Of a DNA stretch of 18,502 nucleotides, positions 843 through 18,502 are shown one piece after another. This stretch comes from a virus, in IMG/VR virus record IMGVR_UViG_3300045988_059421, positions 1 through 18,502 of that record; one strand, given 5' to 3'. A program made the translations under genes and the position numbers. How positions within the stretch are numbered: position 1 is the first letter of the stretch; every line of letters begins with the position of its first letter. The notes beneath the pieces are model-generated. The model ran no database searches. It was given only the letters and a program-made list of their open reading frames with translations, and was not told the DNA's origin.

Positions 843-844
843 AT

Positions 845-2081: not shown

Positions 2082-2086
2082 AAACC

Positions 2087-3880: not shown

Positions 3881-3888
3881 TAAACAAA

Positions 3889-3917: not shown

Positions 3918-3935
3918 ATTGCTATTTCAGATTAT

Positions 3936-5075
3936 TTACAACGTCCACTCACCAGAGTTTGTAGCCCATGCAGGCGGGTTAACCTGCTGCGTAGCAATAG
4001 CGGAGAACAACATGGAGTTATCAGACACGAAACCTACTGAACCGTTGTTTTTGAAAAACAGCTGTGCATTGAGAACAGCATCACCTGTTCCGGGTCCGGG
4101 AATCCAAAGCAAACCCGAAATGAGTTTGTCATTGGTAGGCGCGCCGTTATTTGCATCACCGGCAGCGGAAACGTAGGACGTTCGCGGCATTAACTCAAAC
4201 TTAAGGCAGTTTTGAGTAGTAGCTCCAAGCAGGGAAGAAATTTGGCGCTTTGCATCCAGCGACATAGTAAACCGTTCGCGCCAGTTACCCGACACGGAAA
4301 CGGAATTATCCTGTCCAAACACACGACACACGCCATAACAGATAATAGCGCTGTCACCCGCAGAGGGGAACGAAAGCATGTCCAGAATAACCTTTTTGTA
4401 ATACTTCGTTCCTGTCATGGTGAACGACTTATAGTTAAATTCCGGGTACTTCTTAATCATGTTCTCGAGCGCGGCTACACGTTTAGTCAAAGAACTGATA
4501 TTGGAGTTTATGCTGCTAATCTGTCCGTTAACTTCGTCTTTCCACTGGTTATACTGGTTTGTAAAATCAGTTTTCCACGTGTTGAACTCATTATTCGTAC
4601 TCGAGGTGTACGTGTTGAACATCTGATCAATGCGCGTGTTAGCATTGTTTACAAAATCGTTAAACTTTTTGTTTAAATTATTTGTAGTGTTTGTAGCGTA
4701 GTCGTTAAACCACTGCTGTAAGGTAGTGTTTGTATTATTTTTATACTCTTCGAACCTGTTCCAAAGCTCCTGCGTAAGGTCGTCGAAGTGCTGTTCCATG
4801 TGCGCTTCAAACCTTGCGATTTCCGCGTTAACCCAGTCTTGCAGGTCTTTATAGGCTTTGTGTAAAGCGTCGATGTTATCCTGCATCTTTTCGAGTTCCT
4901 CAACCATTTTGTTAAGGAACGCCGCAAGCTTGCACAGCACTTCATAATAACTCAAACTCTGGTCATAGACAGCGGGAAGAACTTTCTGACACCAAAAGCG
5001 CAGATAAGGAATGCCGTCATACTTTTTTAAAATCGGGTCAAAGTTAGCGGGTGTGAAATTGTTGTCGTTCGGCAT
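3936..5075 (-). CDS. Tail fibre / receptor-binding protein (379 aa), in the phi29 gp12 appendage position
   Basis: Last gene of the late operon, after the lower collar gene. The N-terminus carries the YDQSLSYYEVLCKL motif typical of Firmicutes phage fibre anchor domains. It is followed by a long Asn-rich coiled-coil-like repeat region and then a distinct C-terminal domain. RBS AAAGGTGG. Confidence 0.65.
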   Translation of the reverse strand: MPNDNNFTPANFDPILKKYDGIPYLRFWCQKVLPAVYDQSLSYYEVLCKLAAFLNKMVEELEKMQDNIDALHKAYKDLQDWVNAEIARFEAHMEQHFDDLTQELWNRFEEYKNNTNTTLQQWFNDYATNTTNNLNKKFNDFVNNANTRIDQMFNTYTSSTNNEFNTWKTDFTNQYNQWKDEVNGQISSINSNISSLTKRVAALENMIKKYPEFNYKSFTMTGTKYYKKVILDMLSFPSAGDSAIICYGVCRVFGQDNSVSVSGNWRERFTMSLDAKRQISSLLGATTQNCLKFELMPRTSYVSAAGDANNGAPTNDKLISGLLWIPGPGTGDAVLNAQLFFKNNGSVGFVSDNSMLFSAIATQQVNPPAWATNSGEWTL

Positions 5076-5091
5076 ACTTTACCACCTTTCT

Positions 5092-5781
5092 TTATTCCCA
5101 CAAACCGAAAAACAAATCTTCCAGTTCGTGTAATACCATGTTGTCAACACTTTCATAATTTTTATACATCTTCGTCATTTCGGAGTAATACGCGTCTCCG
5201 CTGCTACGACCTGTATAAGTATACTCCGTGTTGCGTTTACCGTCCTGTGTGCTCTGTGCTGTGCCGTCGGTTGAAGCTTCGCTTGTTGTCTTTGTCGCGT
5301 TTGTCAGATACTTATCAGTGTCTAACCCCTCAATACCACCTTGCGGCGTTTCATTGAACTTATTCCAGCCTGTACTCTGACTTTCGCCGTGTGACGTGCC
5401 GTTGTCGGAAGTGTGCGTAGTATCTTCGCCCACTGTGGTATGTTTGATATTATCAAATGGGTTAGCAAGTTCCTCTTGCTTATACAGCAGGTTGTACTTC
5501 GGCATAATCGCGACAAGCCGTTCACGCAAGTGGAGTTTCCATAGCGCATAAGTTTCATACGCTATTTCACGCGTGTAATAGTGGAGCAGGATAAGTTTGC
5601 AAAGGTGTTCACGATAACTTTCTTTCCAGATAGGAAATTCAAAATCGAAAATGTGTTCGTACCCTGCTTGCAAAGCTTTCTCTACGTCACCATAGCCGCT
5701 GTGTTCGTACTCTCCTTGCCAGTTCAATTCAGGAACAAAACTTTCGCAAATCCAACGGACTTCTGTTGTATATTTACTCAT
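5092..5781 (-). CDS. Lower collar protein (phi29 gp11-like, 229 aa)
   Basis: Immediately downstream of the portal gene, with an 8-nt overlap. The stretch FDFEFPIWKESYREHLCKLILLHYYTREIAYET...IMPKYNLLY resembles the conserved core of lower collar proteins as I recall it. Confidence 0.65.
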   Translation of the reverse strand: MSKYTTEVRWICESFVPELNWQGEYEHSGYGDVEKALQAGYEHIFDFEFPIWKESYREHLCKLILLHYYTREIAYETYALWKLHLRERLVAIMPKYNLLYKQEELANPFDNIKHTTVGEDTTHTSDNGTSHGESQSTGWNKFNETPQGGIEGLDTDKYLTNATKTTSEASTDGTAQSTQDGKRNTEYTYTGRSSGDAYYSEMTKMYKNYESVDNMVLHELEDLFFGLWE

Positions 5782-6715
5782 TGTTTTCTTCCTTTCTTTC
5801 CTTTTCTTTGATTTGTTTCTGATACATTACGTCGTCTGTATCTTCCAAAATCAAACGGTCGTCATAATCTTCCTTGTATTCGCACCAAACATCCAAACCA
5901 AACAATTTGTTGATTTTTTCGCAAGCCTTTTGCCGTTCATTCAAACGGTTGTACCGCGCCGCGATAGTACCGCCCATGTTGCGCGACACTTCGTCTGTAA
6001 TCAAGCGTTCTTTCTTCTGCAACGACGTGTTTGAAATGCCAAGGTATGTCAAAGCTTCGTTGAAAATCTGTGTTTTGATTTCGTACAGTTTGTCTGCAAC
6101 ATACGGCGCGTCTGTCTTTAAAACCGTAAAGTCATTGATAGATAAATTCTTGTCACCGAAAATAAACGGCTGATTTCCGTCATACTTCATGTACAAGTTT
6201 TTCATCGTCAATCGTTTGCTTTCATCTGCCAAAATCAAAATCGGTGTTTTCTGGGCATTGATATTTATATCTATGATTTCATCAATCTTTCCAAGCCTGT
6301 CCGCAAATGATACTAACTGCATCAGGGACGGTGTGCGGAGATAATTGTTATAAATCATCACGCCCGTTTCTTGCGTCAAGGGGTATCTGTAATTATTATA
6401 CATGCTACGCGCCGTAAACTGTAACGGCTGTCCGTACACGTCGTAGCCGCTTGTGCTGACGTTTACGGGCAATGTCATGTACATGTCGAGCGCGTCGTCC
6501 TTGAAGAACACTGCACGTCCGTTAGCCAGTAACGCAAGTTCGAGTGTCCGCACATCACATGTTTCTGGTAGTCCCGTCCAGTCAAACATGGACGCGGAAA
6601 GTTCAACAAGCCTTGCAAGGTACAAGTCGTTGTTAAGTCGGTTTTCAAAAGCCGTACTCCAGAACATGCGGTCTTGCGTGCCGCCGTAATGCTTTGCCCT
6701 CAAACTACTTGCCAT
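5774..6715 (-). CDS. Portal / upper collar connector protein (phi29 gp10-like, 313 aa)
   Basis: It shares motifs with phi29 gp10 as recalled: VMIYNN, NAQKTPILI, KTDAPYVADKL, LGISNTSLQKKERLITDEVS and ACEKINKLFGLDV. Its size matches gp10 (309 aa). RBS AAGAGGTG. Confidence 0.9.
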   Translation of the reverse strand: MASSLRAKHYGGTQDRMFWSTAFENRLNNDLYLARLVELSASMFDWTGLPETCDVRTLELALLANGRAVFFKDDALDMYMTLPVNVSTSGYDVYGQPLQFTARSMYNNYRYPLTQETGVMIYNNYLRTPSLMQLVSFADRLGKIDEIIDININAQKTPILILADESKRLTMKNLYMKYDGNQPFIFGDKNLSINDFTVLKTDAPYVADKLYEIKTQIFNEALTYLGISNTSLQKKERLITDEVSRNMGGTIAARYNRLNERQKACEKINKLFGLDVWCEYKEDYDDRLILEDTDDVMYQKQIKEKERKEENNE

Positions 6716-6730
6716 GTTATATCACCTCTT

Positions 6731-8404
6731 TTAAATTGAATTGTCAAGCGTATAGTCCCCGACTTCATCACCGTTTTTCCAGAATGTAATTCCGTTATCA
6801 TAAATTTTGCAAATCATATCCTCATCATCTCCGGGGCAGTTTGCATTGATTGTACAGGCGTTAGTACGGGTATATGTCCAGTGTGGGCGAACATTTCGGT
6901 TCGGAATTTTGACTTCGTTGCACTTATACCCCCATCTGTCAAAGTAGCCGTCAATGATTTTAGCATACTCGGCTTTACAACACATGCTGTAAAAGGTGGG
7001 TCGCAAATTATCTGTAGCCGCTGTAACGCTTGTCGCATTACTTAATCCGTATGCTGTATCAGGGACTTCTGCCAAGTCCGCTTGCTTTGCTAACTGTTCC
7101 GCTTCAATTTGCATACTATCTATAGTTGCAGTTACGCCTGTTCCCAAAACAGAAGTCGCACCCGACAAAGCTAATGCAACGTTACCTGTAGCGATACCCG
7201 CCGCCGCGTTTGTCACACCGCCCACAGCACCTTTAACAGCATTGTAAATAGGTGTTGAGCGCTGATACGCTAAGCTGTTAGAGTTTAAAGCCAAATACGC
7301 GGAAAGAGCGTCACCCAAATATGGGAGCATTGGATATCCTGATATTGTAATAGCTTCATCAAAAAATTCGTCCTTGAATTTATATTTTTGGGGCACAATA
7401 ACTACTTGCGGGTTATTAAAGCCCGTGCCGTATGCCTTAAAAGCAACACTGTTTGCAAGTTTATCGGCGTCACTCTGTTGAAAGTCTTCAAATCGGTAAT
7501 CCTGTACAGCGCCGCTTTGATTGGATAACCTTAAAAAATTGTAGGGGTAACAGAAAAGTTTTTTGTTTCTTGGTGTATAACCGTTTAAATCGCTTGTGTT
7601 CCTCAAAACGTGCATTTCGAGTTCAGCGGGTTCTTTTGGCGGCTGTCCACCATTTACACTAATTGTGATATTTGTATCACACATAAACACAGGTAAAGTA
7701 TAAACAGATTGTAGGGCAGACTGTTTTCCCGATGCAAGATAATAAGAAAGATCGTTCATCACACCAATATTATCAACACCCGTAACTTCACCATTTGTTT
7801 TAACCTGTTTGCTACACCCAATATACATATTACAAGGAACGCCATAAGCTTTAGTTTGTGCTTTCGTTTCGCTTCCAAGCGCGCTTGACGGTTCAGAAGC
7901 CGTATAGATAACGCCTTTAGGTGAAAATAAAACGTTGTCTTCCCACTGTACCCCATTTACAATAGGTTCACCATAACCGATATTTTCGGGGACAGTGTGG
8001 GTAAAAATTGTATCATCTGCAACATGTTCACGGTCAACAAAACACGCTTGCAGCGTGTAATCAAAAAACCACGTCTGCATAACATCAAGCGTAAATGTGA
8101 CTTCGCAAGTGACGTTGTTTACATACTCAACGCTTTCAATAAACGCATAAAACCACTTGTTATTATACGCGGTGTTTTGATACATCAGATAGTTGCAGTT
8201 ATACAATTCGTCTGCTGAACACTCTACACGCATCCACCCACGTTTTTCACGCTGATATGAAACACCCGTAAACGTCTTTTTGACGTGCTTTCGAAAATAC
8301 GCATACTGCGCGTCAGCGTCGTCAAAATAAATAGTATGCTGATAGTTATTGTTGATTGGAATACCGCTTAAAATATATACTTTGCTGTTTGGAACGATAT
8401 ACAT
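6731..8404 (-). CDS. Tail knob protein (phi29 gp9-like, 557 aa)
   Basis: Motifs shared with phi29 gp9 as recalled: NKWFYAF, DVMQTWFFD, DREHV, LSAYLALNSNSL, AKQADLAEVP and a C-terminal GYKCNEVKIPN...DNGITFW. Its position between the capsid and portal genes matches phi29. Confidence 0.85.
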   Translation of the reverse strand: MYIVPNSKVYILSGIPINNNYQHTIYFDDADAQYAYFRKHVKKTFTGVSYQREKRGWMRVECSADELYNCNYLMYQNTAYNNKWFYAFIESVEYVNNVTCEVTFTLDVMQTWFFDYTLQACFVDREHVADDTIFTHTVPENIGYGEPIVNGVQWEDNVLFSPKGVIYTASEPSSALGSETKAQTKAYGVPCNMYIGCSKQVKTNGEVTGVDNIGVMNDLSYYLASGKQSALQSVYTLPVFMCDTNITISVNGGQPPKEPAELEMHVLRNTSDLNGYTPRNKKLFCYPYNFLRLSNQSGAVQDYRFEDFQQSDADKLANSVAFKAYGTGFNNPQVVIVPQKYKFKDEFFDEAITISGYPMLPYLGDALSAYLALNSNSLAYQRSTPIYNAVKGAVGGVTNAAAGIATGNVALALSGATSVLGTGVTATIDSMQIEAEQLAKQADLAEVPDTAYGLSNATSVTAATDNLRPTFYSMCCKAEYAKIIDGYFDRWGYKCNEVKIPNRNVRPHWTYTRTNACTINANCPGDDEDMICKIYDNGITFWKNGDEVGDYTLDNSI

Positions 8405-8432
8405 AATATTGTATACTCCTTTAATAAGTCTT

Positions 8433-8454
8433 AACCCTCCATTGCTGGAGGGTT
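8433..8454 (-). other. Stem-loop between the capsid and tail knob genes
   Basis: AACCCTCC (8433-8440) pairs with GGAGGGTT (8447-8454), giving an 8-bp GC-rich stem and a 6-nt loop. No U-tract follows on the minus strand. It may act as a partial terminator or an mRNA stabiliser. Confidence 0.35.
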
Positions 8455-8473
8455 TGACTTACATTGAATTAGT

Positions 8474-9823
8474 TTACTGCACGGTAATCACACAAGTGCC
8501 GCTCTTTGTGGTATCGAACTTAGACGTTGCTTTAATGTTTGCCGTGCCGCTTGCAGTCGGGTCAACCTTAACAACGCCGGACGCAGACACCGTAACGAGC
8601 GGATTATCGCTCGACCATGTAACGGCCTGCGGTGCAAAGTTGGTTGTTGCAACATTTGCAGTAATGGTAAGCACCTGACCTTTGGAAACGGTTGCCTGTT
8701 CCGGGGACACCGTAACGCCTGTAACGGTCGGAGTTCCGGGGATAAACGCGATAGCATTCGCGAACGGGGAAACGCTGAACAGCTTCCACACATGAAGATA
8801 ATGGTTCCAGTAAAGACCCTGTACGTTCTCAAGGTCGCGGAACTGCTGGAGCTTATCGTAAATCACGAAATAGTCACGGTCAACGAGGATAGCAGGAATT
8901 TCGTTGAGAGCTTCCAGTTCGTCCTGACTGTACTCGTAATAGTTCGGGTCGTCCTTAAAGAGTTCACCAAGACGCTTTACGTCCAGCTTTCCGAAACCAT
9001 CGACAAGCACAGTATGACCGAGAAGTTCGGCTTCGCTCATGTTGAATGCACGGGCGAGGTTCTTAACGCTCTGGGTTGCATCGAAAGCAGTATTGATAAT
9101 GATATACTGGTCATCGCGCAGGGTATGCGTGGTAACGCCCGCAAGGTTATACTCGTTCGACATAAACAGCAGGTCGTTGGACGCTTTACGCATTGCAACG
9201 GTTGCATCATCGATATTGCTTGTGTTGATCGTCTGAACGCTGATCTGACCACGGGAGAGGTTACGCGCCAGCATATACTTCATGACCTGAAATTCGTCGT
9301 TTTCCATGGCGGTATACAGCTGTTCCGTAATCTTCGAAACGAGGTTATACACGCCGTCTTCGGACATAAACGCAAGACGCAAATCCTGTTCTTCTGTCGT
9401 AGTCTTGTAGAACTTCTGGAAGTTCATCACGTGGAACGCGGACTGTACGTCCGGGATTTCACGCTTAAAGAGTTCTTTTTCTGCAACCGCCGGGTCATAC
9501 TGGAACGGTCGCGCCATAGCTACGAATACTTCTTCAACCGTTTCGCCAAAGTCCAAAAATCCCTTTTTGAACATTGCCCACGGGTTGGAGTAGGACTTTG
9601 AAGTGATAATGACCTTACCGATACGGTTTACGAGCGCGGACAGGAACTCATTCTGAAGCGCGGGCATGTCCATGATGATTGCGCCGATTTCACGAATGCT
9701 GTCTGCATCCGGGGTCACAACCGGGACATAGTTACGGTAATTTACAGACGCCGAATTTCGGATTGCATTCAACACGTCTGCGGAACTGTTTGTAAGGGTT
9801 CTTACTTTCGGCTTAGTTGCCAT
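8474..9823 (-). CDS. Major capsid protein with a C-terminal Big_2 Ig-like domain (449 aa)
   Basis: Its size (phi29 gp8 is 448 aa) and its position after the scaffold gene match phi29. The C-terminal ~85 aa, TVTGVTVSPEQATVSKGQVLTITANV...AVTWSSDNPLVTVSASGVVKV...GTANIKATS, form a classic bacterial Ig-like group 2 domain, as in phi29 gp8. Confidence 0.9.
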   Translation of the reverse strand: MATKPKVRTLTNSSADVLNAIRNSASVNYRNYVPVVTPDADSIREIGAIIMDMPALQNEFLSALVNRIGKVIITSKSYSNPWAMFKKGFLDFGETVEEVFVAMARPFQYDPAVAEKELFKREIPDVQSAFHVMNFQKFYKTTTEEQDLRLAFMSEDGVYNLVSKITEQLYTAMENDEFQVMKYMLARNLSRGQISVQTINTSNIDDATVAMRKASNDLLFMSNEYNLAGVTTHTLRDDQYIIINTAFDATQSVKNLARAFNMSEAELLGHTVLVDGFGKLDVKRLGELFKDDPNYYEYSQDELEALNEIPAILVDRDYFVIYDKLQQFRDLENVQGLYWNHYLHVWKLFSVSPFANAIAFIPGTPTVTGVTVSPEQATVSKGQVLTITANVATTNFAPQAVTWSSDNPLVTVSASGVVKVDPTASGTANIKATSKFDTTKSGTCVITVQ

Positions 9824-9839
9824 TGAAAATCATCCTTTC

Positions 9840-10121
9840 TTATTTGAATAAATCGTTGAACGTGATATGTTCTGCACGTTCGGTTGCATCTTCGGGTTCG
9901 TCGGGTTTACTGGTTTCCGGCTTGCCCTCAAAGAAACGGCTTGTATATTTTTCACGCCATTCTTTATCTTTCTTCGCTGTTGCTTCTTCCGCCGCAGACA
10001 GTCTGGTGCTAAAATCATTAAACGTGTCCGCAACGTCTTCGGCAATTTCTAACATTCTATCAGGTGTAAAGTCACCTGACGCAAACATTTCCTTAAACTG
10101 TTCAAGATTTTTTACTGCCAT
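9840..10121 (-). CDS. Scaffolding protein (phi29 gp7-like, 93 aa)
   Basis: Small, acidic and predicted helical, lying directly upstream of the capsid gene. The C-terminal ...ERAEHITFNDLFK resembles the phi29 gp7 tail ...ETITIEDLEAK, recalled from memory. Confidence 0.7.
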   Translation of the reverse strand: MAVKNLEQFKEMFASGDFTPDRMLEIAEDVADTFNDFSTRLSAAEEATAKKDKEWREKYTSRFFEGKPETSKPDEPEDATERAEHITFNDLFK

Positions 10122-11276
10122 TTAAATCATTCTCTTTCTGTAGCCAAGACACATCATCCATATAGGCATGGATTTTCTGCCCGGTGTTGGTGGTTCTGGT
10201 GGTTCTGGTGGTGTAGGCGGGGTATCAGGGTCATATTTTACAAGGTAGTTATACCAATATCTCGCAGCCTTTTCACGGTCTGCGCGGGTTTCTTCGGGGT
10301 AGGCCGGGCGCTCGTATGTGTCCAAAAATACACTCGCAAGGTATTCGGGACTTTCCGTCGATGCCTTAAATTCGGCATAACTCATGTTGTACGGACTAAC
10401 AGGATACCACAGGTTTGTAGCGTTACTCAAAAAATAGCATTGCGCTGTACCATCGTCGGGGCTGCCTTGCACGTCGCTAAAGTGTGGTGCGTACCCGGGG
10501 GACGATTTTGCAATATCTGCGTCAATATATTTTTGAGGTGGAGTAAACTGTACCAAACCATAACCAATGTCGTCCTTTCTATAATCCGTCGACGGTAGGG
10601 GTTCATCCCAACCCCACCGCCACGGATTGTACCCGCTCTCCCATTCCATGTTGCCAAGGACAGCAGAGACGGCGTTTAATGTCCACCCGAGCGACTGCAC
10701 TAAAGCCTTGTAAATCATAATCGCATTGTCTTGCGCTTCAGAACTCTCACGGGAGTAACCGTAAAGGTTTTTTGCGTGCCATTTCGCGTCGGGTAAAGGT
10801 GGTTTCGGTTGCGGTGTGTTTGCGTCCCACGTAACATTATACGTGCCTACACCATTCGGTATACGCAAGATAGAGGACGGGTCTTTTCTGTAGGCGATTG
10901 TTTGTCCGCCGTCCCAGTATTCCCAGTGGGTGTGTACGCCGGTTACGTTACCTGTTTCGCCTTGCGTGCCGATAAACTGCCCTTTTGCAATGGTATCACC
11001 CTCAGACCAAATCTGTGACGCAAAGTGCGCGGCAAGCCAATACTTGTTTGGTTCAAACTCTACAAGTATCATGTTGCCCCACGACATATTGCCCGTTATG
11101 GTGCTGCCGTCCCACACCTGCGCCCATACAACCTTTCCGGCTAAAGGTGCATATGCCTTGTGATTGTCATGCACGGTATCAATACCGCCATGCTCACCGC
11201 CGCCGTCGTAGTACGGGTAGCCCGCACTTTCATAGATTGTCTTTTGGTCTGTAATACATTGCTTATAGGTTGCCAT
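10122..11276 (-). CDS. Tail-associated peptidoglycan hydrolase: N-terminal M23 peptidase plus C-terminal phage-tail lysozyme-like domain (384 aa)
   Basis: M23 motifs are present: HGGID (HxxxD) and GVHTHWE (HxH). The C-terminal half carries LGNMEWESGYNP...GYGLVQFTP, typical of the phage tail lysozyme family. It ends with a Pro-rich PDTPPTPPEPPEPPTPG stretch and a short hydrophobic/basic tail. It is the functional analogue of phi29 gp13. Confidence 0.85.
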   Translation of the reverse strand: MATYKQCITDQKTIYESAGYPYYDGGGEHGGIDTVHDNHKAYAPLAGKVVWAQVWDGSTITGNMSWGNMILVEFEPNKYWLAAHFASQIWSEGDTIAKGQFIGTQGETGNVTGVHTHWEYWDGGQTIAYRKDPSSILRIPNGVGTYNVTWDANTPQPKPPLPDAKWHAKNLYGYSRESSEAQDNAIMIYKALVQSLGWTLNAVSAVLGNMEWESGYNPWRWGWDEPLPSTDYRKDDIGYGLVQFTPPQKYIDADIAKSSPGYAPHFSDVQGSPDDGTAQCYFLSNATNLWYPVSPYNMSYAEFKASTESPEYLASVFLDTYERPAYPEETRADREKAARYWYNYLVKYDPDTPPTPPEPPEPPTPGRKSMPIWMMCLGYRKRMI

Positions 11277-11277
11277 G

Positions 11278-11997
11278 TTAAATCAAGCTTTCAATTTCGT
11301 TTGCAAGGACTTCAATCTGTTCGAGTTTCGTTCGGATTAAATCCTTGTTGTCACTTTTCTTGCTGTAGCCGTTCAAGCCCTTAGCTTTAATCTGGGACGG
11401 ATAATCATAATACGCGTAGTCTGCGTCCACTTTACCCGAGACACCGTTTACGGTATGACTGTTTGTATACTGCCAGATACCCGCGTTTTCGTATTGGCAA
11501 ACGTCGTTCCACTGTGCACACCATACGGCGTAGCGGGATAGTTTCGACATGTCGAGCATGTTTGAGAGGTAATACAAAGACGCGTAGATTCCTACCCAGT
11601 AACCGTTGCTCTCCACTGTGCTAACGATTTTAGCCGCGATGCTGCTATATTTTGCTTTACCGAGGCGTTTTGCTATTTCGTCTTCCTCAAGGTCGATATA
11701 CACCGGGTAATCAAACTGTTTACCCTTTAAGGCTTTGATAAAGCTTGCGGCTTCGTCTGTCGCCATGTCTAAGTTTTCGGCGTAGCTGTACCAATATGCA
11801 CCCACGCCAAGCCCTGCGGCTTTCGCTTTTTTGTAGTATTCCTCAAACCTTGCGTCGTACTGTTCCGGGTAACGGTTTGCACTGCCGTAACCGGCGCGGA
11901 GTAAAACAAAGTCAATGCCCGAGGATTTTAGCTTGTTAAAGTCAACTGTTCCCTGATGTTCGGATAGGTCGATGCCTTTTGAAAAGATTTTTGTCAT
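11278..11997 (-). CDS. GH25 muramidase endolysin (239 aa from ATG 11997)
   Basis: KGIDLSEHQGTVDFNKLKSSGIDFVLLRAGYG is the canonical GH25 N-terminus. The ORF track extends it to 12021, but the ATG at 11997 follows AGGTG by 8 nt and avoids overlap with the upstream gene. No recognisable cell-wall-binding domain; the tail is short and coiled-coil-like. Confidence 0.85.
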   Translation of the reverse strand: MTKIFSKGIDLSEHQGTVDFNKLKSSGIDFVLLRAGYGSANRYPEQYDARFEEYYKKAKAAGLGVGAYWYSYAENLDMATDEAASFIKALKGKQFDYPVYIDLEEDEIAKRLGKAKYSSIAAKIVSTVESNGYWVGIYASLYYLSNMLDMSKLSRYAVWCAQWNDVCQYENAGIWQYTNSHTVNGVSGKVDADYAYYDYPSQIKAKGLNGYSKKSDNKDLIRTKLEQIEVLANEIESLI

Positions 11998-12001
11998 GTT
12001 A

Positions 12002-12946
12002 TCACACCTGCGGTAGTACATTCGGTTTAAAATAATAGTTGTAATTTATAAGCCCTGATGTAGTGTCGCCGTAAATAGACGCTTTATTCAACGCTGTTAT
12101 TACATGATCTTCGTGCTTGCACGGAAATGAAGCCATAAACGGCGAGCCGGTCCTATCCGAAACGACTATTAACATTCCCTTGTCTATATCGATTATAACG
12201 GTATTATCACCATCAGCGATATGCAATCCTAACACATCATTACCTTTCGAGTTGTCTGCTGTGCGGTAAGTAAACTCTAATTCCAATACTGCTTTTGCCC
12301 CAGTTTTATTCTTAACCCTAAACTTTATCATGCTCAAGCTGCGGTTTTCAGGTATAGGGCTGGAAGTCATTGGAAAGACACTATTCTGAACTTGCATTTT
12401 GTATAACCCGTACTGCAAGTTTTCAAAAGCTGTTGAAACAATGCTGCGAAAGTCCGAAATATCTTTGTGGTTTTTGTTTACACCATACGAAAGATAACCA
12501 AATAACGCGTTATCATAGTTATACGGCGGGGGCATAATACCGAATGTAAAATTGTGCTGGACTTCTTTCCCGGTAGCTTTGTCGATAATCTTGCACGATT
12601 TAACACCTGTAGCACCTCGAGGTAACACTAACACATATCTAAAGGACGTATATGGATTATCTAACGGGTTCGACGAACCAGAGTATATCTTTATGGGTAG
12701 TACGGTTACGCCCTCGTTCGTCTCAAACGTCAATTTAAATTCATCTAAAAATTTTCCTGCTAACTCTATGCATGGAATAATTTTCGAGAATTTGTCTGAA
12801 TATACAACTGCTTTCATATCCGTCAATGGTTCAATCGTCGGAATATCTATTCGCTGTTCGCACGTTAAAATTTGCTTTTTAAACTTAGATACGGGTTTAA
12901 TAATGTATGTCTGCTGGATGCTGTAAATCAACTTATTTTCGCTCAT
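12002..12946 (-). CDS. Hypothetical protein (314 aa), orphan between the holin-like and endolysin genes
   Basis: Long clean ORF. GAGGGTG RBS. TAATG overlap with the upstream stop. No motif I recognise. Confidence 0.75.
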   Translation of the reverse strand: MSENKLIYSIQQTYIIKPVSKFKKQILTCEQRIDIPTIEPLTDMKAVVYSDKFSKIIPCIELAGKFLDEFKLTFETNEGVTVLPIKIYSGSSNPLDNPYTSFRYVLVLPRGATGVKSCKIIDKATGKEVQHNFTFGIMPPPYNYDNALFGYLSYGVNKNHKDISDFRSIVSTAFENLQYGLYKMQVQNSVFPMTSSPIPENRSLSMIKFRVKNKTGAKAVLELEFTYRTADNSKGNDVLGLHIADGDNTVIIDIDKGMLIVVSDRTGSPFMASFPCKHEDHVITALNKASIYGDTTSGLINYNYYFKPNVLPQV

Positions 12947-13158
12947 TACTCTTCACCCTCTTTCTCCACACCCATCTTATCGCAAAGCTTTTGCATAATG
13001 AGCGTGTTATTGTTAAGTGCATCTGTTAGCTTCTGCACTTCATTTCGGTGTGTCTCTTCGAGCTTGTTAATATACCAAAAGCATATCAAACAAACCGCAA
13101 TGGGGAAGCCTAAAGAAGAAATAACCTGCACAATAGCGGTTACGTCCATAAGTATCAC
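12946..13158 (-). CDS. BhlA/UviB-family holin-like protein (70 aa)
   Basis: One N-terminal transmembrane segment (VISSLGFPIAVCLICFWYI) is followed by a charged coiled-coil tail, which is the architecture of BhlA/UviB proteins. First gene of the late operon. AGGAG lies 8 nt upstream. Confidence 0.6.
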   Translation of the reverse strand: MILMDVTAIVQVISSLGFPIAVCLICFWYINKLEETHRNEVQKLTDALNNNTLIMQKLCDKMGVEKEGEE

Positions 13159-13193
13159 TCCTATCTGTTATATTGACCACCTTTTATACTAAT

Positions 13194-13222
13194 AGTATAG
13201 CACAAGGGTGTTGACTTGTCAA
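13194..13222 (-). promoter_or_regulatory. Late-operon promoter (minus strand)
   Basis: Read on the minus strand it is TTGACA, a 17-nt spacer, then TATACT with an upstream TGc (TGTGCTATACT). On plus-strand coordinates the -35 is at 13217-13222 and the -10 at 13194-13199. It lies about 30 nt upstream of the holin-like gene. Confidence 0.7.
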
Positions 13223-13239
13223 TATACTTGTGGTATAAT
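13211..13239 (+). promoter_or_regulatory. Promoter of the packaging ATPase gene
   Basis: TTGACT (13211-13216), a 17-nt spacer, then TATAAT (13234-13239) preceded by TGg (TTGTGGTATAAT). It lies 33 nt upstream of ATG 13273. Confidence 0.75.
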
Positions 13240-13272
13240 TTAGATAGAAATAATACACGGAGTTGAAATATA

Positions 13273-14313
13273 ATGCCAAAATCGAATTATTACGACGGAA
13301 CAAAACTATTGTCATTAAAGGATATAAACGGAAAGACACCCGAGGTGTTCATGTGCACCTCTAACCGTAGCGCGGGTAAAACAACCTATTTTAATAGGCT
13401 TGTGGTAAACAGGTTTATTAAACGTGGTGCAAAGTTCGCGTTACTGTATCGATTTAACTATGAGTTAGACGGCTGTGACGAAAAGTTCTTTAAAGATATA
13501 AAAGAATTATTCTTTCCTGAATATGAAATGACCGCCGCAAAAAAGATGAAGGGCATATATCAAGAGTTATATTTGAATGAAGAACCATGCGGCTATGCAA
13601 TTTCTATAAATTCTGCTGACCAATTAAAGCGCAATTCACATTTATTCAGTGATATCGATAACATTATATTCGATGAATTCCAGTCCGAGCAGAACCACTA
13701 CTGTGACAAAGAGGTTGAAAAGTTCATATCTATTCATAATTCTATTGCACGTGGACGTAGCAAACAATCCCGCTACGTACCCGTATATATGATTTCTAAC
13801 CCTGTAACGATACTCAACCCGTATTACGTTGCAATGGATATTTCAACCCGACTTCAAAAAGATACGCATTTCTTGCGTGGTGACGGCTTTGTCCTTGAAC
13901 AGGGTTACAACGAAACGGCGGCGAAAGCGTTAAAGTCAAGCGCTTTTAACCGAGCGTTTGGTTCGAGTGATTATATCGCGTACAGCGCCGAGGGAGTGTA
14001 TTTACAGGATGATTTATCATTTGTCGATACGCCAACAGGGCGCGGAAAATATGTGGCAACAATACGCTATGCGGGTATTGACTATGGCGTTCGAGAATAT
14101 CCCGAATTGGGTATAGTGTTCTGTGACAAAAGCGTCGATTATCAATATCCGCTTAAAATCACAGTGGACACAGCAGACCATAAATTAAATTATGTTATGG
14201 TATCAAGTAACTTTATCCTTATTCAAAAGCTTCGGTATTATTTTGAACACGGTTGTATGCGGTTCAAAGACCTGCAAGCGAAAGAAGCAATACTAAAAGC
14301 ACTTTCATTCTAA
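13273..14313 (+). CDS. DNA encapsidation ATPase (phi29 gp16-like, 346 aa)
   Basis: Walker A is NRSAGKTT and Walker B is NIIFDEF. VVNRFIKRGAKFALLYR matches phi29 gp16 INRFIKYGEQFIYVRR as recalled. SNPVTILNPYY and a C-terminal GCMRF match gp16 SNAVSVVNPYF and GYLRF. Confidence 0.9.
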   Translation: MPKSNYYDGTKLLSLKDINGKTPEVFMCTSNRSAGKTTYFNRLVVNRFIKRGAKFALLYRFNYELDGCDEKFFKDIKELFFPEYEMTAAKKMKGIYQELYLNEEPCGYAISINSADQLKRNSHLFSDIDNIIFDEFQSEQNHYCDKEVEKFISIHNSIARGRSKQSRYVPVYMISNPVTILNPYYVAMDISTRLQKDTHFLRGDGFVLEQGYNETAAKALKSSAFNRAFGSSDYIAYSAEGVYLQDDLSFVDTPTGRGKYVATIRYAGIDYGVREYPELGIVFCDKSVDYQYPLKITVDTADHKLNYVMVSSNFILIQKLRYYFEHGCMRFKDLQAKEAILKALSF

Positions 14314-14431
14314 TTTGTATTCTGCGTTCGTTCTGCACATCGACCTGCACGGGTGACACGGTTGAAATATGCCGCCGTGACAAGGCTATGAACGGTCAAT
14401 TCCTTTGTGTAGACGTGCGTTTAAGAATAAC

Positions 14432-14467
14432 AAAATCCCTTAGAGTTTTCACGCTCTAAGGGATTTT
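14432..14467. terminator. Bidirectional intrinsic terminator between the ATPase and polymerase genes
   Basis: AAAATCCCTTAGAG (14432-14445) pairs with CTCTAAGGGATTTT (14454-14467), giving a 14-bp perfect stem and an 8-nt loop. The A and T runs serve both strands. It lies 4 nt from the polymerase stop. Confidence 0.8.
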
Positions 14468-14471
14468 ACTT

Positions 14472-16454
14472 TCAGTGCATTTCAAATGTCGTATCAGCTA
14501 AGATAACACCACCTTTAATGCGCTTTTGTGAAAGCTTGCCCGGTATCATAATGCCGGGTACAAAGTCGGATATGCTACGAGGTTCACGGATAAATTCAAG
14601 TTCTTCGGGTGTGTAATTTTCTGGGTTCTTCTCTGTGTCGTAGTCCTGCTCTACGGAATGTATAAACAGTTGTTTAACGGTTTTATTTGCACCTGCGCAT
14701 GTTACATTGTAATATGGTTTTTCAATCGGTTCGCCGTCCTCATGTGTAACGTGCTCAATATAGGTTTTCTGACGCGTGAAAAATCCAACGTCCCAGTTTG
14801 TTTCATTCTTCCAGCAACAGTAATTACGGGGATGCAGCTGCACACCTTTTATCTTGTCTAATGGTAAGTCAAGATGCAAGCTGTCAGTATCTGCATATAT
14901 AAAGCCGGGGTTATCAACACCGTAGTAATTCTGTTGTGCGGCGGTAATTGTAAAGTTACGTGCGTAACTGGTAATCGCCGCTCCACATGCAATGTAGCCC
15001 GGTGTTTTTTCGTTTTCCGCGACAGTGAAGAAACCGACTACGCCGTTAGGTTTTAGCATAGCAACCTTGTACGAACTTATTGTAGATGCCGCTTGTTTTC
15101 CGTATAGGTTATTGCTGTATAATTTTGCCACTGTTCTAATGCCCTTGTTTGGAGCATTGATTTTCATTTCACGATATTTGTTTAAGTATTTGTCGTAGAT
15201 GCCTTGTTGTGCTTCAAAATAACAGCCGTCCAAAATTTCGGGGTCAATTATAATGTAATGCTTTTTAAACAGTTCGTAGTCTGTCATGGTCATTGTCATG
15301 GTCACGTATGTGTCGTGCTTCTTGCCGCATTGGTCTACCCATTCGGACACGTAGCGCTTCTGGTTTTCGTCCCATACGTCAGAAGTAGTTAAGCTTTCGT
15401 TTTGTCTGTAATGCAGATTTTTCTTTAGCTGAATAAAAGGTAGATACCCGACCTTTAACCTAAAACGACAACGCAGACGCACGTAGTAATACAGACCAAC
15501 TAAAGGGTTATGTAACTTTAATCGTTCCTGTCTTTCCGCTTCAACTGCCTTTAAGCCCTCTTCGCCGCTAAAAAATTCAGGCTTTCCAACAGGGTAATAA
15601 TTTCCACTATCACTGTGCATCATGGACGGGTATAGGGAGTTTACATCCAGCGTCAAACCGTTTTTATAAACCTTGCATTGTTTGCCTTGCACGACATGAC
15701 ACCACCCGCCACGGTATGCCTTGCGTATATATTCATCTGCATTTGTAGCGCCGTAACGTTCGGGATCAAGCGGAATGTCGTAGAGGTTCGGGAACAAGTC
15801 TTCGTAAACATGACGATTATATCCGGACTTAAATTCACTCATGCAGCACGCGCCGATTGTAAGTTTTTTGTGACCGTCCGCAAACATAAATTCAATAGCT
15901 TCTTTAACAACAAGAACATCATTTTTGATATAGTGTTCTTCTTCTGGGGTAATGTTGTACCCAGCATGGCGTTCGCCTTTGTATTCAATCGTGCTCTTTC
16001 TGTGTTTGGTGTTAAAGCTTTTGCCCATGTCTGCTACGGAGAGGGGGATAAGCTTATAACTGTCGCGGAACTCTATAAGACTTCTTTGGGTTTTAACAGT
16101 CATCGTATACCATTGTCCCATATCGGATATGCTGTACTTAAACGTGTTAGGCTTCATATCATTTGTTTCGAAAAACATAGTGTGTTCAACTTTGCCATCG
16201 GGTGTGTAGGTTGCTTGTGCGTAGTCATCGCGCTTCAATAGGTAATCGAGAATGTAAGAAAAGTCAAAAGCGCCATTATGAAAGTATACAATATTTTTAC
16301 CTTTTAACTGTTCTACCCAGTCCCAGTATTTATCTATTGAATTTACAACAAGCACATCTTCTGTATGTATTTTAACACATGCCGCCGCCCAGACTTCCGT
16401 TTCGGTTTGCCCGTCGTATACGCTTGTCTCAAAATCACATACGTAATAATTCAT
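14472..16454 (-). CDS. Protein-primed family B DNA polymerase (660 aa)
   Basis: Exonuclease motifs: ExoI CDFETS, ExoII HNGAFDFSYIL, ExoIII YIKNDVLVV. Polymerase motifs: LDVNSLYPS (motif A), KLYSNNLYGK (motif B), YADTDS (motif C) and QKTY (KxY). The 4-nt ATGA overlap with the upstream terminal protein gene matches phi29 genes 3 and 2. Confidence 0.95.
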   Translation of the reverse strand: MNYYVCDFETSVYDGQTETEVWAAACVKIHTEDVLVVNSIDKYWDWVEQLKGKNIVYFHNGAFDFSYILDYLLKRDDYAQATYTPDGKVEHTMFFETNDMKPNTFKYSISDMGQWYTMTVKTQRSLIEFRDSYKLIPLSVADMGKSFNTKHRKSTIEYKGERHAGYNITPEEEHYIKNDVLVVKEAIEFMFADGHKKLTIGACCMSEFKSGYNRHVYEDLFPNLYDIPLDPERYGATNADEYIRKAYRGGWCHVVQGKQCKVYKNGLTLDVNSLYPSMMHSDSGNYYPVGKPEFFSGEEGLKAVEAERQERLKLHNPLVGLYYYVRLRCRFRLKVGYLPFIQLKKNLHYRQNESLTTSDVWDENQKRYVSEWVDQCGKKHDTYVTMTMTMTDYELFKKHYIIIDPEILDGCYFEAQQGIYDKYLNKYREMKINAPNKGIRTVAKLYSNNLYGKQAASTISSYKVAMLKPNGVVGFFTVAENEKTPGYIACGAAITSYARNFTITAAQQNYYGVDNPGFIYADTDSLHLDLPLDKIKGVQLHPRNYCCWKNETNWDVGFFTRQKTYIEHVTHEDGEPIEKPYYNVTCAGANKTVKQLFIHSVEQDYDTEKNPENYTPEELEFIREPRSISDFVPGIMIPGKLSQKRIKGGVILADTTFEMH

Positions 16455-17167
16455 GCTTGCACGTCTCCAAACGCTTCATTTAGTTTCATCATTTCTTCGA
16501 CACCGGATTTCCTATGCTTATAAAAATCAGAAAGCCAGCGCCCCGCCGCAGTTGTGTCGTTTGCTTCTTGAGATGTTAAAGTACCTGCTACAACACCGAT
16601 TTCATTTAGCATGTACGCGAATACTGTGTCACCTTCATTTTTGCCATAAAGGTTTTGTAGGTTGTAGCGTTCTTCGCGTAATTTTTTTATAATGTATTCC
16701 ATACCCGCATGCCTCTTTTCATCCGTTGCCCAACACGCATTAGCTTTTATAAAATTCGAAAACGCAAGGGACGCTTCGTTTATATCCGCTAAGGGTGCAT
16801 TGTTAAGTGCAAGAGTTATGTTGCTTTCAACACCTGTTGAACTTGTAACCGTAAATTGCGTAAAGCCTAACTTGTTAAACTGCGCTCTTGCAGCTTTGGG
16901 TATGTCTGCAAACGGAATAGCTTCACCATTCTGTGCTTCTGCATATAACGCGCTGTCCGTAATGTCTTTAAGTTCTTGCTTTAATTTATCAAGCATTTTC
17001 TTTGTTATTCTTTCGGGACGTTCAAAAGCGCTGAATAAATCTTTAGCCGTATATTGCGATTTGTAACCCTTTTTCAAGTATCGGTTATAGCGCTGTCTTG
17101 CGTTTTTAATCAAGCGTCCAAATTCTGCTTGATTAGGAGTCAATTTTTTCGATGATTTTTTAGCCAT
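16451..17167 (-). CDS. Terminal protein (phi29 gp3-like, 238 aa)
   Basis: It lies directly upstream of the polymerase gene and is translationally coupled to it. The N-terminus MAKKSSKKLTPNQAEFGRLIKNARQRYNRYLKKGY parallels phi29 TP MARSPRIRIKDNDKAEYARLVKNTKAKISRTKKKYG, recalled from memory. The RAQFNK motif is shared. Confidence 0.75.
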   Translation of the reverse strand: MAKKSSKKLTPNQAEFGRLIKNARQRYNRYLKKGYKSQYTAKDLFSAFERPERITKKMLDKLKQELKDITDSALYAEAQNGEAIPFADIPKAARAQFNKLGFTQFTVTSSTGVESNITLALNNAPLADINEASLAFSNFIKANACWATDEKRHAGMEYIIKKLREERYNLQNLYGKNEGDTVFAYMLNEIGVVAGTLTSQEANDTTAAGRWLSDFYKHRKSGVEEMMKLNEAFGDVQA

Positions 17168-17185
17168 GTTTTAACCTCTTTTCTA

Positions 17186-17214
17186 TTGACAAAATATTAC
17201 CGTTGTGGTATAAT
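17186..17214 (+). promoter_or_regulatory. Orphan consensus sigma-A-type promoter pointing rightward, antisense to the replication operon
   Basis: TTGACA (17186-17191), a 17-nt spacer, then TATAAT (17209-17214) preceded by TGg (TTGTGGTATAAT). This is a 12/12 consensus match. No plus-strand ORF lies downstream. Confidence 0.6.
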
Positions 17215-17227
17215 AAAGTGTAAAGAT

Positions 17228-17268
17228 AAAAAGAACCGATGACGAATTTTTTTTTTCGTCATCGGTTC
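17228..17268 (-). terminator. Intrinsic terminator inside the replication operon (minus strand)
   Basis: GAACCGATGACGAA (17233-17246) pairs with TTCGTCATCGGTTC (17255-17268), giving a 14-bp stem and an 8-nt loop. On the minus strand it is followed by TTTTT (plus-strand A run 17228-17232). It lies 57 nt after the stop at 17325. Confidence 0.75.
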
Positions 17269-17324
17269 AATCGGGAGGTTTACCGCCGTGTTGCGGCAGT
17301 TAAGGAAAGGAGAAATCTTATTGT

Positions 17325-17588
17325 TTATTTGATACTGTCAACGAGTTCCGCGTATTCGATAAAGTCGCTGATGGACATTTCGTAGCGGTTTTCTTCAATG
17401 GATTCGATATTGACCAGCGTAACGACACGCCCCGTGTCTTTGTTGTCGTGTTCTCGATGCAGCTTTTTGGTAAGCGCGTAAAGAGTAGGAGCGCCCTCAC
17501 ACATTTCCGTAAAGTGATAGTCAACACCGTTTTCGTTTACGGTGTATGTATATGTCGTTGTCTGAATGGTTTTACGGATATACTTCAT
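17325..17588 (-). CDS. Hypothetical protein (87 aa), in the phi29 gene 4 position
   Basis: The ORF track starts it at GTG 17597. The ATG at 17588 (MKYIRKTIQ...) follows GGCGGGTG by 6 nt and lies 1 nt after the upstream stop. No motif recognised. Confidence 0.6.
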   Translation of the reverse strand: MKYIRKTIQTTTYTYTVNENGVDYHFTEMCEGAPTLYALTKKLHREHDNKDTGRVVTLVNIESIEENRYEMSISDFIEYAELVDSIK

Positions 17589-17589
17589 G

Positions 17590-17979
17590 TTAGTCACCCG
17601 CCTTTGCTACAGGGCGGCAGCCGAGGAAGTTGCGACCCTTGTAGTTCTGGGACGGTTTTGCAAAGCACTCGATCTCCATGCCGTCGGTCTCGTCGAACGT
17701 CTCTACAATGTCGAGGAAAGACTGAATGAACGACTGGGAGCCGGTGTGATACAGAACGCCGTCTGCGATAACGACAAGCTTATCGTATTCCTTATCCTGA
17801 CCGGGTTTCGGGTTGTCGTTCACAGTGTGAACCATTGCCCATGCATCCGGATAGGAGAGAACGAGTTTACCGAATTCTTCGATAGCCTTTTCAAGGTTCT
17901 CACCGTTGGAATAGTTCATTACGTTGTACTTGTCCATTTTGCTGAGGTCTGTAGATTTGATGATAGTGTTAGTAAGCAT
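17590..17979 (-). CDS. Probable ssDNA-binding protein (phi29 p5-like, 129 aa)
   Basis: First gene of the replication operon. MLTNTIIKST... and ...VVIADGVLYHTGSQSF...DIVETF...KGRNF parallel phi29 p5 MENTNIVKAT... and ...TIFAADGSLYSAISKT...DLIDLV...KGNVFF, recalled from memory. The size is similar (p5 is 124 aa). Confidence 0.55.
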   Translation of the reverse strand: MLTNTIIKSTDLSKMDKYNVMNYSNGENLEKAIEEFGKLVLSYPDAWAMVHTVNDNPKPGQDKEYDKLVVIADGVLYHTGSQSFIQSFLDIVETFDETDGMEIECFAKPSQNYKGRNFLGCRPVAKAGD

Positions 17980-17987
17980 AGTTTTGT

Positions 17988-18016
17988 TTGTCCTTTCAAA
18001 TAGTATTTGTTATAAT
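17988..18016 (+). promoter_or_regulatory. Possible rightward promoter at the start of the right non-coding end
   Basis: TTGTCC (17988-17993), a 17-nt spacer, then TATAAT (18011-18016) with an upstream TGt. The region is AT-rich, so a chance match is possible. Confidence 0.35.
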
Positions 18017-18145
18017 GAAGAATAGAGTAGAGTATGGAAACTGACAATGAAATTACGCAGAAAGGAGCTTTTATCCTTTCTTAAATATTCTTTTGTAATC
18101 ATCTGAAACTTCGTTGCAACTTGCGTTCTTCTTGATTACGTATAT

Positions 18146-18174
18146 ATCTTAACACATGTGGGAAGAAATGTCAA
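18146..18174 (-). promoter_or_regulatory. Promoter of the replication (early) operon
   Basis: Read on the minus strand it is TTGACA, a 17-nt spacer, then TAAGAT preceded by TGt (TGTGTTAAGAT). On plus-strand coordinates the -35 is at 18169-18174 and the -10 at 18146-18151. It lies about 160 nt upstream of ATG 17979. Confidence 0.6.
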
Positions 18175-18236
18175 TAGGTTTTTTCAAAGTTTTTGAAAAT
18201 ATTTTTCGGTGTGCTTTATCGCTTTAGTTTATGATA

Positions 18237-18260
18237 AAAAATGACGGTTAGTCATTTTGT
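18237..18260. repeat. Subterminal palindromic repeat R1
   Basis: AAAATGAC-GGTTA-GTCATTTTGT. The 8-nt arms AAAATGAC and GTCATTTT are exact reverse complements around a 5-nt core. Confidence 0.85.
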
Positions 18261-18391
18261 ATGCATGGCATGTCAATCCTTGGTCGTGCGTTCGCCTGAT
18301 TCCGTCGACAGAGAGCACGTGTTCCGGCGGGGTTACGTATTGCACCGTGTCCCGTCCGCAGAGCGGAGCAGAGCGACGCGGACGGCGGGTG
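18261..18391. other. GC-rich structured non-coding island between repeats R1 and R2
   Basis: By my count 61 of the 90 bases in 18301-18390 are G or C, in a genome that is otherwise AT-leaning. It contains an 8-bp GC stem: CCGTCCGC (18352-18359) pairs with GCGGACGG (18378-18385). It also contains degenerate direct units beginning CCGTC..CAGAG at 18302 and 18352. Confidence 0.6.
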
Positions 18392-18414
18392 AAAACTGAC
18401 TGTTAGTCATTTTG
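18392..18414. repeat. Subterminal palindromic repeat R2
   Basis: AAAACTGAC-TGTTA-GTCATTTTG. It differs from R3 only at the first core base. The left arm carries one extra C relative to R1. Confidence 0.85.
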
Positions 18415-18427
18415 TGCGCGACATGGT

Positions 18428-18450
18428 AAAACTGACCGTTAGTCATTTTG
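18428..18450. repeat. Subterminal palindromic repeat R3
   Basis: AAAACTGAC-CGTTA-GTCATTTTG. It lies 36 bp (start to start) from R2 and ends 17 bp before the right ITR. Confidence 0.85.
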
Positions 18451-18467
18451 CGCTCGCGCTGATGCCA

Positions 18468-18502
18468 GTTAGTTGTGACTTACGCTCGTTCTTACCACTG
18501 CT
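18468..18502. repeat. Right inverted terminal repeat (35 bp, perfect)
   Basis: Exact reverse complement of 1-35. Confidence 0.95.

Follow-up and report, generated by a model that had tools for sequence, protein, structure and literature searches.

Palindromes beside the right inverted terminal repeat of a phi29-like gut phage match operator-like sites of bacterial TetR-MMPL operons

The DNA analyzed here (IMG/VR virus record IMGVR_UViG_3300045988_059421, positions 1 to 18,502; hereafter the window) is the complete, protein-primed genome of a phi29-like podophage. Next to its right inverted terminal repeat (ITR) lie three palindromic 23-bp repeats, R1, R2 and R3 (Table 1), which match sites found at the promoters of bacterial operons encoding a TetR-family protein and an MMPL transporter. 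We observed directly the sequence identity of the repeats with these native operators, the lack of a TetR gene in the phage, the conservation of the repeats among relatives and their placement beside the right terminus. Judged from the shared sequence, a host TetR-family protein probably binds R1-R3. We also lean towards the more specific reading that the repeats are sites for the TetR autoregulator of the TetR-MMPL operon, which is widespread in gut Clostridia, and that this regulator would gate the right origin or the early promoter.

The sequences and coordinates of the repeats given in the original prediction were borne out, including the 17 nt that separate R3 from the ITR, as was their palindromic form, a dyad such as dimeric DNA-binding proteins recognize. 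In R1 the two 8-bp arms are perfectly symmetric around a 5-nt center; in R2 and R3 the left arm contains an additional C. The core is better described as TGACT-N3-AGTCA, flanked by A-rich sequence on the left and T-rich sequence on the right; the core of R2 is perfect (5+3+5). The repeats, which make up family D1 in the repeat search, are spaced 155 bp (R1 to R2) and 36 bp (R2 to R3) apart. The R1 center is located ~109 nt upstream of the predicted early transcript start and 255 bp from the genome end. The centers of R2 and R3 are ~100 bp and ~64 bp from the right end, and together these two repeats span 52-111 bp from it. Searching with the consensus at up to three mismatches returned exactly three sites in the window, all on the plus strand (0.00 expected), and three consensus matches were reached in none of 200 dinucleotide shuffles. 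The repeats are thus confined to the right end and the two ends are asymmetric, as had been proposed. The likeness once claimed between the inner end of the ITR and the repeat core came down to a common hexamer, GTTAGT. Because relatives without R2 and R3 keep the same ITR sequence, we see no tie between the ITR and the repeats.

An exact-pattern scan of 185,579 bacterial genomes (596 Gb) with the phage motif gave 10 matches, and a metagenome scan gave nine, four of them from relatives of this phage. In a Clostridia metagenome-assembled genome (MAG; locus L078), a gene for a TetR_N protein (7e-15), followed by an MMPL transporter gene (3e-65), is immediately preceded by two sites at a distance of 43 bp from each other; one of the two sites covers the -35 element and spacer of a TTGACT-17-TATAAT promoter. 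Two sites also occur between divergent TetR and MMPL genes in Saccharibacteria (L080). In a Balneolaceae locus (L077) and in L097 a site abuts the start of the TetR gene; in L097 another palindrome, a perfect one, precedes the next gene. A copy of R2 identical over all 23 nt is present in a gut Ruminococcaceae MAG (MGYG-HGUT-00517; L079, 7425-7447) and in a matching metagenome contig (L096, 4516-4538), where it is a solitary site with a terminator on one side, the promoter of an ATP synthase operon on the other and no TetR gene nearby. This copy may be a further regulon member and a hint at the host lineage, or it may be due to chance.

The association between motif and operon was also recovered without use of the phage pattern, from homologs of the L078 TetR. 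There are 1,310 of these at E ≤1e-20, the named ones from Candidatus Fimenecus, Ruminococcus sp. and Clostridia MAGs, and six were examined (79, 66, 64, 58, 55 and 54% identity). All six head TetR-MMPL operons that continue with a gene of ~560 aa. TGACT-N3-RGTCA was detected at the promoter in all six loci, and the two-site architecture in five of them. In total, the motif is at the promoter in nine out of nine bacterial TetR-MMPL loci examined, which come from gut Clostridia and other phyla.

We then scored the window with a position-weight matrix built from eight bacterial sites only, with phage sequences excluded. The three repeats score 26.8 to 31.4 bits (Table 1), against 27-31 bits for the training sites themselves. 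The fourth-best score in the window is 1.1 bits, and the maximum over 200 shuffles was 13.4 bits. Paired sites are ~36-46 bp apart in the phage and in native promoters alike, and the likeness of R2 to native site 1 includes the flank TTTTGTGC.

Autoregulation, promoter overlap and conservation across orthologs point, by comparative logic, to the motif as the operator of the TetR-MMPL repressor. If so, an operator has been identified for an uncharacterized, widespread TetR-MMPL system. In the native operons (L078, L080 and L144-L152), site 1 covers the -35 element with the spacer, whereas site 2 comes after the start, beside the TetR gene. The phage sites have in common with them the same A/T-flanked TGACT-N3-AGTCA dyad, equal matrix scores and the arrangement in pairs, but are accompanied by no TetR gene, MMPL gene or promoter overlap and adjoin the putative replication origin instead. 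Because this context (promoter and TetR gene) is not matched, we consider R1-R3 to be operator-like in sequence and not members of the regulon. An attempt to name the bacterial TetR failed, as its PDB and NCBIfam matches are only generic TetR/AcrR/FadR-like entries, far below equivalog cutoffs.

A search with the DNA polymerase retrieved 70 related viral contigs, 32 with 95-98% identity, one (L070) with 72% and a clade with ~50%. A connector search supplied the remaining half of the close relatives, and 33 full contigs were rebuilt. When the right ends of these relatives were compared, as the original prediction had suggested, the repeats proved to be conserved. At least one site scoring ≥15 bits with the bacterial matrix was detected in 30 of the 33 close relatives (one to four sites per genome). 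All of these sites are in the right-end non-coding region, in one 300-bp stretch, with none elsewhere in the 33 genomes. At least 13 relatives have the 23-mer of R3 unchanged despite differing flanks. Spacing between R2 and R3 is 35-39 among relatives, in which the spacer sequence differs as well. The site core ends 22 nt before the ITR in eight of nine genomes with R2/R3-like sites (type A, below), across five different spacer sequences. Overall, the sites are intact while the adjoining spacers have diverged by ~35%, and with constant sequence and placement against diverging spacers they look selected.

Modules at the right end follow the order promoter, usually an R1-type site, GC-rich units of ~42 nt, a GC stem-loop, one of two cassettes (A or B) and the ITR. 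The R1-type site, AAATGAC-TGTTA-GTCAGTTT, is at the same place in most type A and type B relatives and is missing in a subgroup. The type A cassette, present in the window and in ~12 relatives, consists of 2-3 copies of AAAACTGACNGTTAGTCATTTTG. The type B cassette is unrelated; it comprises AATCACGTGATT and GTGAACT-N-AGTTCAC, reads GGTAATCACGTGATTATGTGAACTGTTTCTGAATTAGTTCAC, and takes the place of R2 and R3 beside the ITR in ~11 relatives, about a third, that are otherwise 95-98% identical. Type B right ends were identified in L004, L006, L007, L012, L015, L017, L020, L021, L025 and L026, and also in L070, where the cassette is followed by one type A core site and the type B palindrome, GTGAACTAGTTCAC, is perfect over 14 bp. 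Scanning viral contigs for the type B palindromes TAATCACGTGATTA and TGTGAACTAGTTCACT gave 50 and 5 loci, these phages included, counts that by a rough estimate are not above chance for patterns so short. The contig ends of L004, L006, L008, L013, L022, L024 and L028 contain adapters, fold-back ITR copies or duplicated right-end segments. These are assembly artifacts caused by the terminal repeats, and L013 and L022, with their "A plus B" arrangement, may be chimeric.

No TetR-type site was detected with the bacterial matrix in the distant clade near 50% polymerase identity. At the corresponding place, ahead of the early replication operon and close to that end of the genome, these phages have TTGTTAAATTTTTAACAA (TTGTTAA-N4-TTAACAA). 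The consensus of clostridial Rex, a redox sensor, is TTGTTAANNNNTTAACAA (PMC8457756, PMC9600882). A perfect 14/14 match to it is expected ~1e-4 times per genome. Rex boxes were identified in L039, L041, L045, L049, L051, L055, L058 and L064 and in most of L035-L069. Most genomes have a single box with 0-1 mismatch, and 2-3 tandem copies occur in L045, L049, L051 and L064, with several of the tandems at a contig end. In L041 the box is ~105 nt upstream of the early transcript start. The likeness to R1-R3 is that of an operator for a metabolite-sensing host repressor at an equivalent position; the factor and the motif are different, and the motif does not occur in the window. We also considered the type B cassette as a set of Rex boxes and rejected this, since its matches, with 3 of 14 positions mismatched, are at chance level (3.5 such matches per shuffled genome). 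Beside the Rex box of L041 there are three direct repeats of TGTTGAAA (1980-2010), and two copies occur as TGTTGAAAGTTTTCCACA in the last ~80 nt of the L070 right end. TGTtGAA is an imperfect Spo0A box of phage Nf (PMC2731898), and these direct repeats could be Spo0A-type boxes.

A swappable sensor cassette would be expected to look like this, with two clades carrying unrelated host-repressor motifs at one and the same position. It is a possible, if rather doubtful, generalization that abundant gut phi29-like phages contain exchangeable operator cassettes for host small-molecule-sensing repressors (TetR-MMPL, Rex and further palindromes), which would make protein-primed replication or early transcription conditional on the metabolic state of the host and be swapped by recombination to retune sensing. 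A common gut phage lineage appears to wire a ligand-responsive host repressor into the DNA beside one of its origins, and a sister clade appears to do likewise with Rex. If this is true, there is a testable route by which diet-, bile- or redox-related signals could modulate the replication of lytic gut phages, and the asymmetry of the two origins is explained. It would also offer a new handle for host prediction, by matching phage-borne operator motifs to bacterial regulons.

None of 20 phage ORFs (open reading frames) matched TetR_N in Pfam. A hidden Markov model of the TetR N-terminal domain detected nothing at E <1 among 16,478 ORFs of 81 related phage contigs, and it recovered all four positive controls (1e-22 to 1e-37). 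Because the repeats match TetR-MMPL operators and the phage encodes no such protein, they are most likely read by a host protein rather than by the 87-aa, SSB-like or left-arm phage proteins that had been put forward earlier. The host range this calls for is plausible, as the TetR homologs are from Ruminococcus sp. and Clostridia and the phage endolysin has its nearest named cellular homolog in Ruminococcus sp. The 557-aa tail protein (6731-8404) and a 314-aa protein (12002-12946, minus strand) are mosaic, with identities of 37-95% and 30-62%, respectively, among relatives that otherwise share 95-99% identity. Both are likely host-range determinants, and their types are uncorrelated with the right-end cassette.

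A phage-encoded dimeric DNA-binding protein, either an early regulator or an origin organizer, could instead read sites that are palindromic, conserved and close to both the origin and the early promoter, in which case the likeness to TetR operators would be convergent or coincidental. Many small ORFs of the phage have no assigned function, and a common protein could read R1, since R1-type sites occur in type A and type B relatives. We consider this explanation unlikely. PHROG and Pfam searches revealed no TetR-like or other recognizable sequence-specific helix-turn-helix (HTH) among the phage ORFs. In tblastn searches of 30 window genes against the 33 rebuilt relatives, no gene was specific to genomes with R2 and R3, and none co-varies with these sites. 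Proteins of the p6 class bind without sequence specificity, as known from the phi29 literature, which counts against the p6-like protein. Moreover, convergence does not predict a full-strength match over 23 positions including the flanks. The comparison with the phi29 regulator p4 drawn in the original prediction did not hold up either. Sites of p4 are inverted repeats with A/T-rich arms that include AAAATG, and in this they are alike. However, their arms are ~15 nt apart (5 nt here) and their place is between the central early and late promoters instead of at the genome end; a p4 homolog, or another sequence-specific regulator, was not found among the phage ORFs (PHROG, Pfam).

For a host TetR regulator at the right origin, we propose the following mechanism. 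In its ligand-free state, the repressor dimer would occupy R2 and R3, 50-110 bp beside the right ITR, and R1, ~109 nt upstream of the early start. There it would hinder the initiation complex at the right origin (p6-like protein, putative terminal protein and polymerase), and possibly also the firing of the early promoter. A host ligand would free the repressor from the sites, and phage replication from the right end would thereby be coupled to the physiological state of the host, as with the Spo0A boxes of phi29. What we infer, as opposed to observe, is that the repressor binds, which bacterium is the host and whether binding represses or stimulates. That binding results in negative gating of the right origin or the early promoter is suggested only tentatively, by analogy with phi29; the role could instead be stimulatory, as for NFI and Oct-1 in adenovirus. 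Of the three roles in the original prediction, control close to the origin and an operator function are thus both candidates, and nothing observed speaks for or against a packaging-end mark.

In phi29, host Spo0A binds a ~40-bp region situated 30 bp from each end; the p6 complex, and hence initiation, is blocked (PMC2731898). The number of Spo0A boxes differs between phage groups, and Nf, a relative of phi29 with fewer boxes, escapes control (PMC2731898). What the two cases have in common are protein-primed, terminal-protein-linked ends, a cluster of host-factor sites tens of bp from the end, a factor that is not phage-encoded, and a site number and position that differ between close phage groups. 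The difference is that Spo0A boxes are 7 bp long and bound by a response regulator, whereas the sites reported here are palindromes that would be bound by a TetR-family repressor. The principle of host-factor sites at phi29-type ends is already known, and a TetR-type operator at this place would be a new variant of it. Strictly lytic phi29-type phages in Bacillus read the host state via Spo0A and Spo0J sites, a principle that is not known to extend beyond sporulation control or Bacillus.

Protein-primed replication with host-factor sites at the origin is also known from adenovirus, in which the auxiliary origin has NFI and Oct-1 sites directly inside the terminal core origin. NFI, too, reads a dyad with a 5-nt center. 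The adenovirus sites are within the ITR, at both ends, and stimulate initiation, whereas the phage sites are just outside the ITR and at one end.

Several observations weigh against a host TetR autoregulator acting at the right origin. The 10 exact bacterial matches in 596 Gb are near random expectation, and the argument rests on their contexts and not on their count. The HTH of these TetRs is of a common type, with generic best matches in PDB and NCBIfam. A promoter scan and inspection by eye revealed no promoter overlapping R1-R3 on either strand, so the classical mode of TetR repression is absent, and a position of about -109 for R1 is unusual for a repressor. In the window and the 33 relatives, the sites are at the right end only and over no promoter, in contrast to the Spo0A boxes of phi29, which are at both ends and at early and late promoters. 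It is also not obvious what the phage would gain from sensing this regulator. Finally, type B palindromes replace R2 and R3 in about a third of the close relatives and a subgroup is without R1; therefore, no single site is essential.

The evidence for operator identity would serve equally well for titration, in which replicating phage DNA provides hundreds of decoy operators that strip the repressor from the chromosome and de-repress the TetR-MMPL operon (or the Rex regulon in other clades), with a change in host physiology to the advantage of the phage. The range of one to four sites among relatives and the lack of overlap with phage promoters are in keeping with this, and Rex decoys would de-repress fermentation genes, a plausible benefit. 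Titration needs no fixed position, yet the sites of 30 genomes are in one 300-bp region at a conserved distance from the ITR, which argues mildly against it. The gain from inducing an MMPL exporter is also unclear, and autoregulated TetR genes would compensate with more repressor. We regard titration as slightly less probable again than a phage-encoded reader. A literature search for phage-borne decoy or TetR sites returned nothing relevant.

A hairpin function of the repeats in single-stranded DNA or RNA, whether as terminators, displaced-strand structures or a packaging-end signal, is very unlikely. Each of them can fold, and R1 reaches -6.2 kcal/mol as single-stranded DNA (z = -6.4). Compensatory changes in the neighboring GC-rich stem-loop indicate that single-strand structure matters somewhere in this region. 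However, R2 and R3 fold weakly (-3.5 to -3.8 kcal/mol), the TGAC/GTCA arms of the repeats are invariant with no compensatory changes, and the asymmetric extra base (C or G, in the left or right arm) is uncompensated. As terminators, the repeats have no feeding promoter, A/T-rich stems and only four T after each, and none of the three was called in the terminator scan. No Rfam family, pRNA included, matched 18000-18502 at E up to 1.

Least probable of all is that the repeats are functionless remnants of host promoter DNA gained by recombination: the right end is a hot spot of recombination, in which cassettes are exchanged and repeats vary, and the resemblance of R2 to native site 1 extends into the flank, but the sites are intact beside spacers with ~35% divergence, occur in multiple copies at a conserved placement with one retained even in L070, and are flanked by no other host sequence.

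The window has an exact 35-nt ITR, found in the repeat search (Table 1). By analogy with phi29, the right ITR is taken to be an origin of protein-primed replication. The DNA polymerase is of the protein-primed type and matches PHROG 1907 at 3e-121. Also encoded are connector, collar, tail and major head proteins, a phi29-type packaging ATPase, a GH25 endolysin and a holin. A 238-aa ORF immediately upstream of the polymerase gene has no database match and is taken, from its position only, as a putative terminal protein. The lineage is common in gut metagenomes, and the window proteins fall into clusters of ~560-1,900 metagenomic sequences. A near-identity search of the whole window against GenBank phages gave no match, and a tRNA gene search of the window found none. 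Between the right ITR and the early genes is a non-coding stretch of 464 bp (18004-18467). From this stretch the predicted early promoter reads leftward into the genes for the SSB-like (single-stranded DNA-binding) protein, the p6-like protein, the putative terminal protein and the DNA polymerase.

Table 1. Repeats, neighboring features and ITRs of the window (scores in bits are from the bacterial-site matrix).
Feature	Position	Strand	Description
R1	18237-18259	+	AAAAATGACGGTTAGTCATTTTG = AAAAATGAC-GGTTA-GTCATTTTG; 26.8 bits
R2	18392-18414	+	AAAACTGACTGTTAGTCATTTTG; core TGACT-GTT-AGTCA; 31.4 bits, window maximum
R3	18428-18450	+	AAAACTGACCGTTAGTCATTTTG; 29.8 bits
Spacer between R3 and ITR	18451-18467		17 nt; length conserved, sequence variable
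Right ITR	18468-18502		exact inverted repeat of 1-35
Left ITR	1-35		no adjoining TetR-type site
GC-rich insert between R1 and R2	18260-18391		GC 0.54-0.64, ~0.3 in flanks
Predicted early promoter	18146-18174	-	TTGACA-17 nt-TAAGAT with TG extension; sigma-A-type; kept in all close relatives
SSB-like gene	17590-17979	-	PHROG 6243 at 0.005, Pfam Phi29_Phage_SSB at 0.005; weak matches
p6-like double-stranded DNA-binding gene	17325-17597	-	PHROG 6370 at 5e-5; weak match

In relatives, the GC-rich insert comprises 1-5 units of ~42 nt, each ending in TTCCGTCCGCGG. It closes with a 9-bp stem (18352-18360 / 18377-18385) around a conserved, purine-rich 16-nt loop, GAGCGGAGCAGAGCGA. Three of the nine stem pairs show compensatory changes in independent lineages, L070 included, which none of 500 shuffles reached; this points to a single-strand or cruciform structure. 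The insert as a whole was rejected as a pRNA-like structured RNA, as on neither strand does it fold better than shuffled sequence (z of -0.4 and -0.1), and covariation is limited to the terminal stem-loop. An A/T palindrome, TTTTCAAAG-TTTTTGAAAA (18181-18199), is situated directly upstream of the -35 element of the early promoter. It is kept in all close relatives and in L070, and could serve as an UP element or be bound by another protein.

The left end has features of its own. A palindrome, CTTTAATACATTAAAG, occurs at 41-56, 5 nt inside the ITR, and is conserved in relatives; in L070 it reads CTTTAGCATGCTAAAG, with both sides of two pairs changed and the dyad kept. It is followed at ~95-135 by TTTGTT(A/C)A repeats. 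Further into the left early region, a GC-rich island just upstream of the ORF at 1078-1497 matches the type II hammerhead ribozyme (Rfam RF02276; 1027-1093, plus strand; 38.5 bits against a gathering threshold of 37, E 8e-5), the sole Rfam match in the window. An 85-aa ORF (1494-1751, plus strand) matches the Pfam family AcrIC5, an anti-CRISPR against type I-C systems, at 2e-19. Versions in relatives are only 37-49% identical, or there is none. This match suggests that the host has CRISPR-Cas of type I-C. A 24-nt direct repeat without mismatches, GAAAGGAAAATGCAAAATGAAAAC, is found at 1092-1115, overlapping the start of the ORF at 1078-1497, and at 1559-1582, inside the AcrIC5-like ORF.

A rightward promoter at 17186-17214, a perfect TTGACA-17 nt-TATAAT with TG, reads antisense into the p6-like and SSB-like genes. 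Directly after it is a hairpin with a 14-bp stem (17233-17268), which reads as a terminator for the leftward transcript. Together, these elements may specify an antisense RNA or a regulatory arrangement between the early genes and those for the putative terminal protein and the polymerase.

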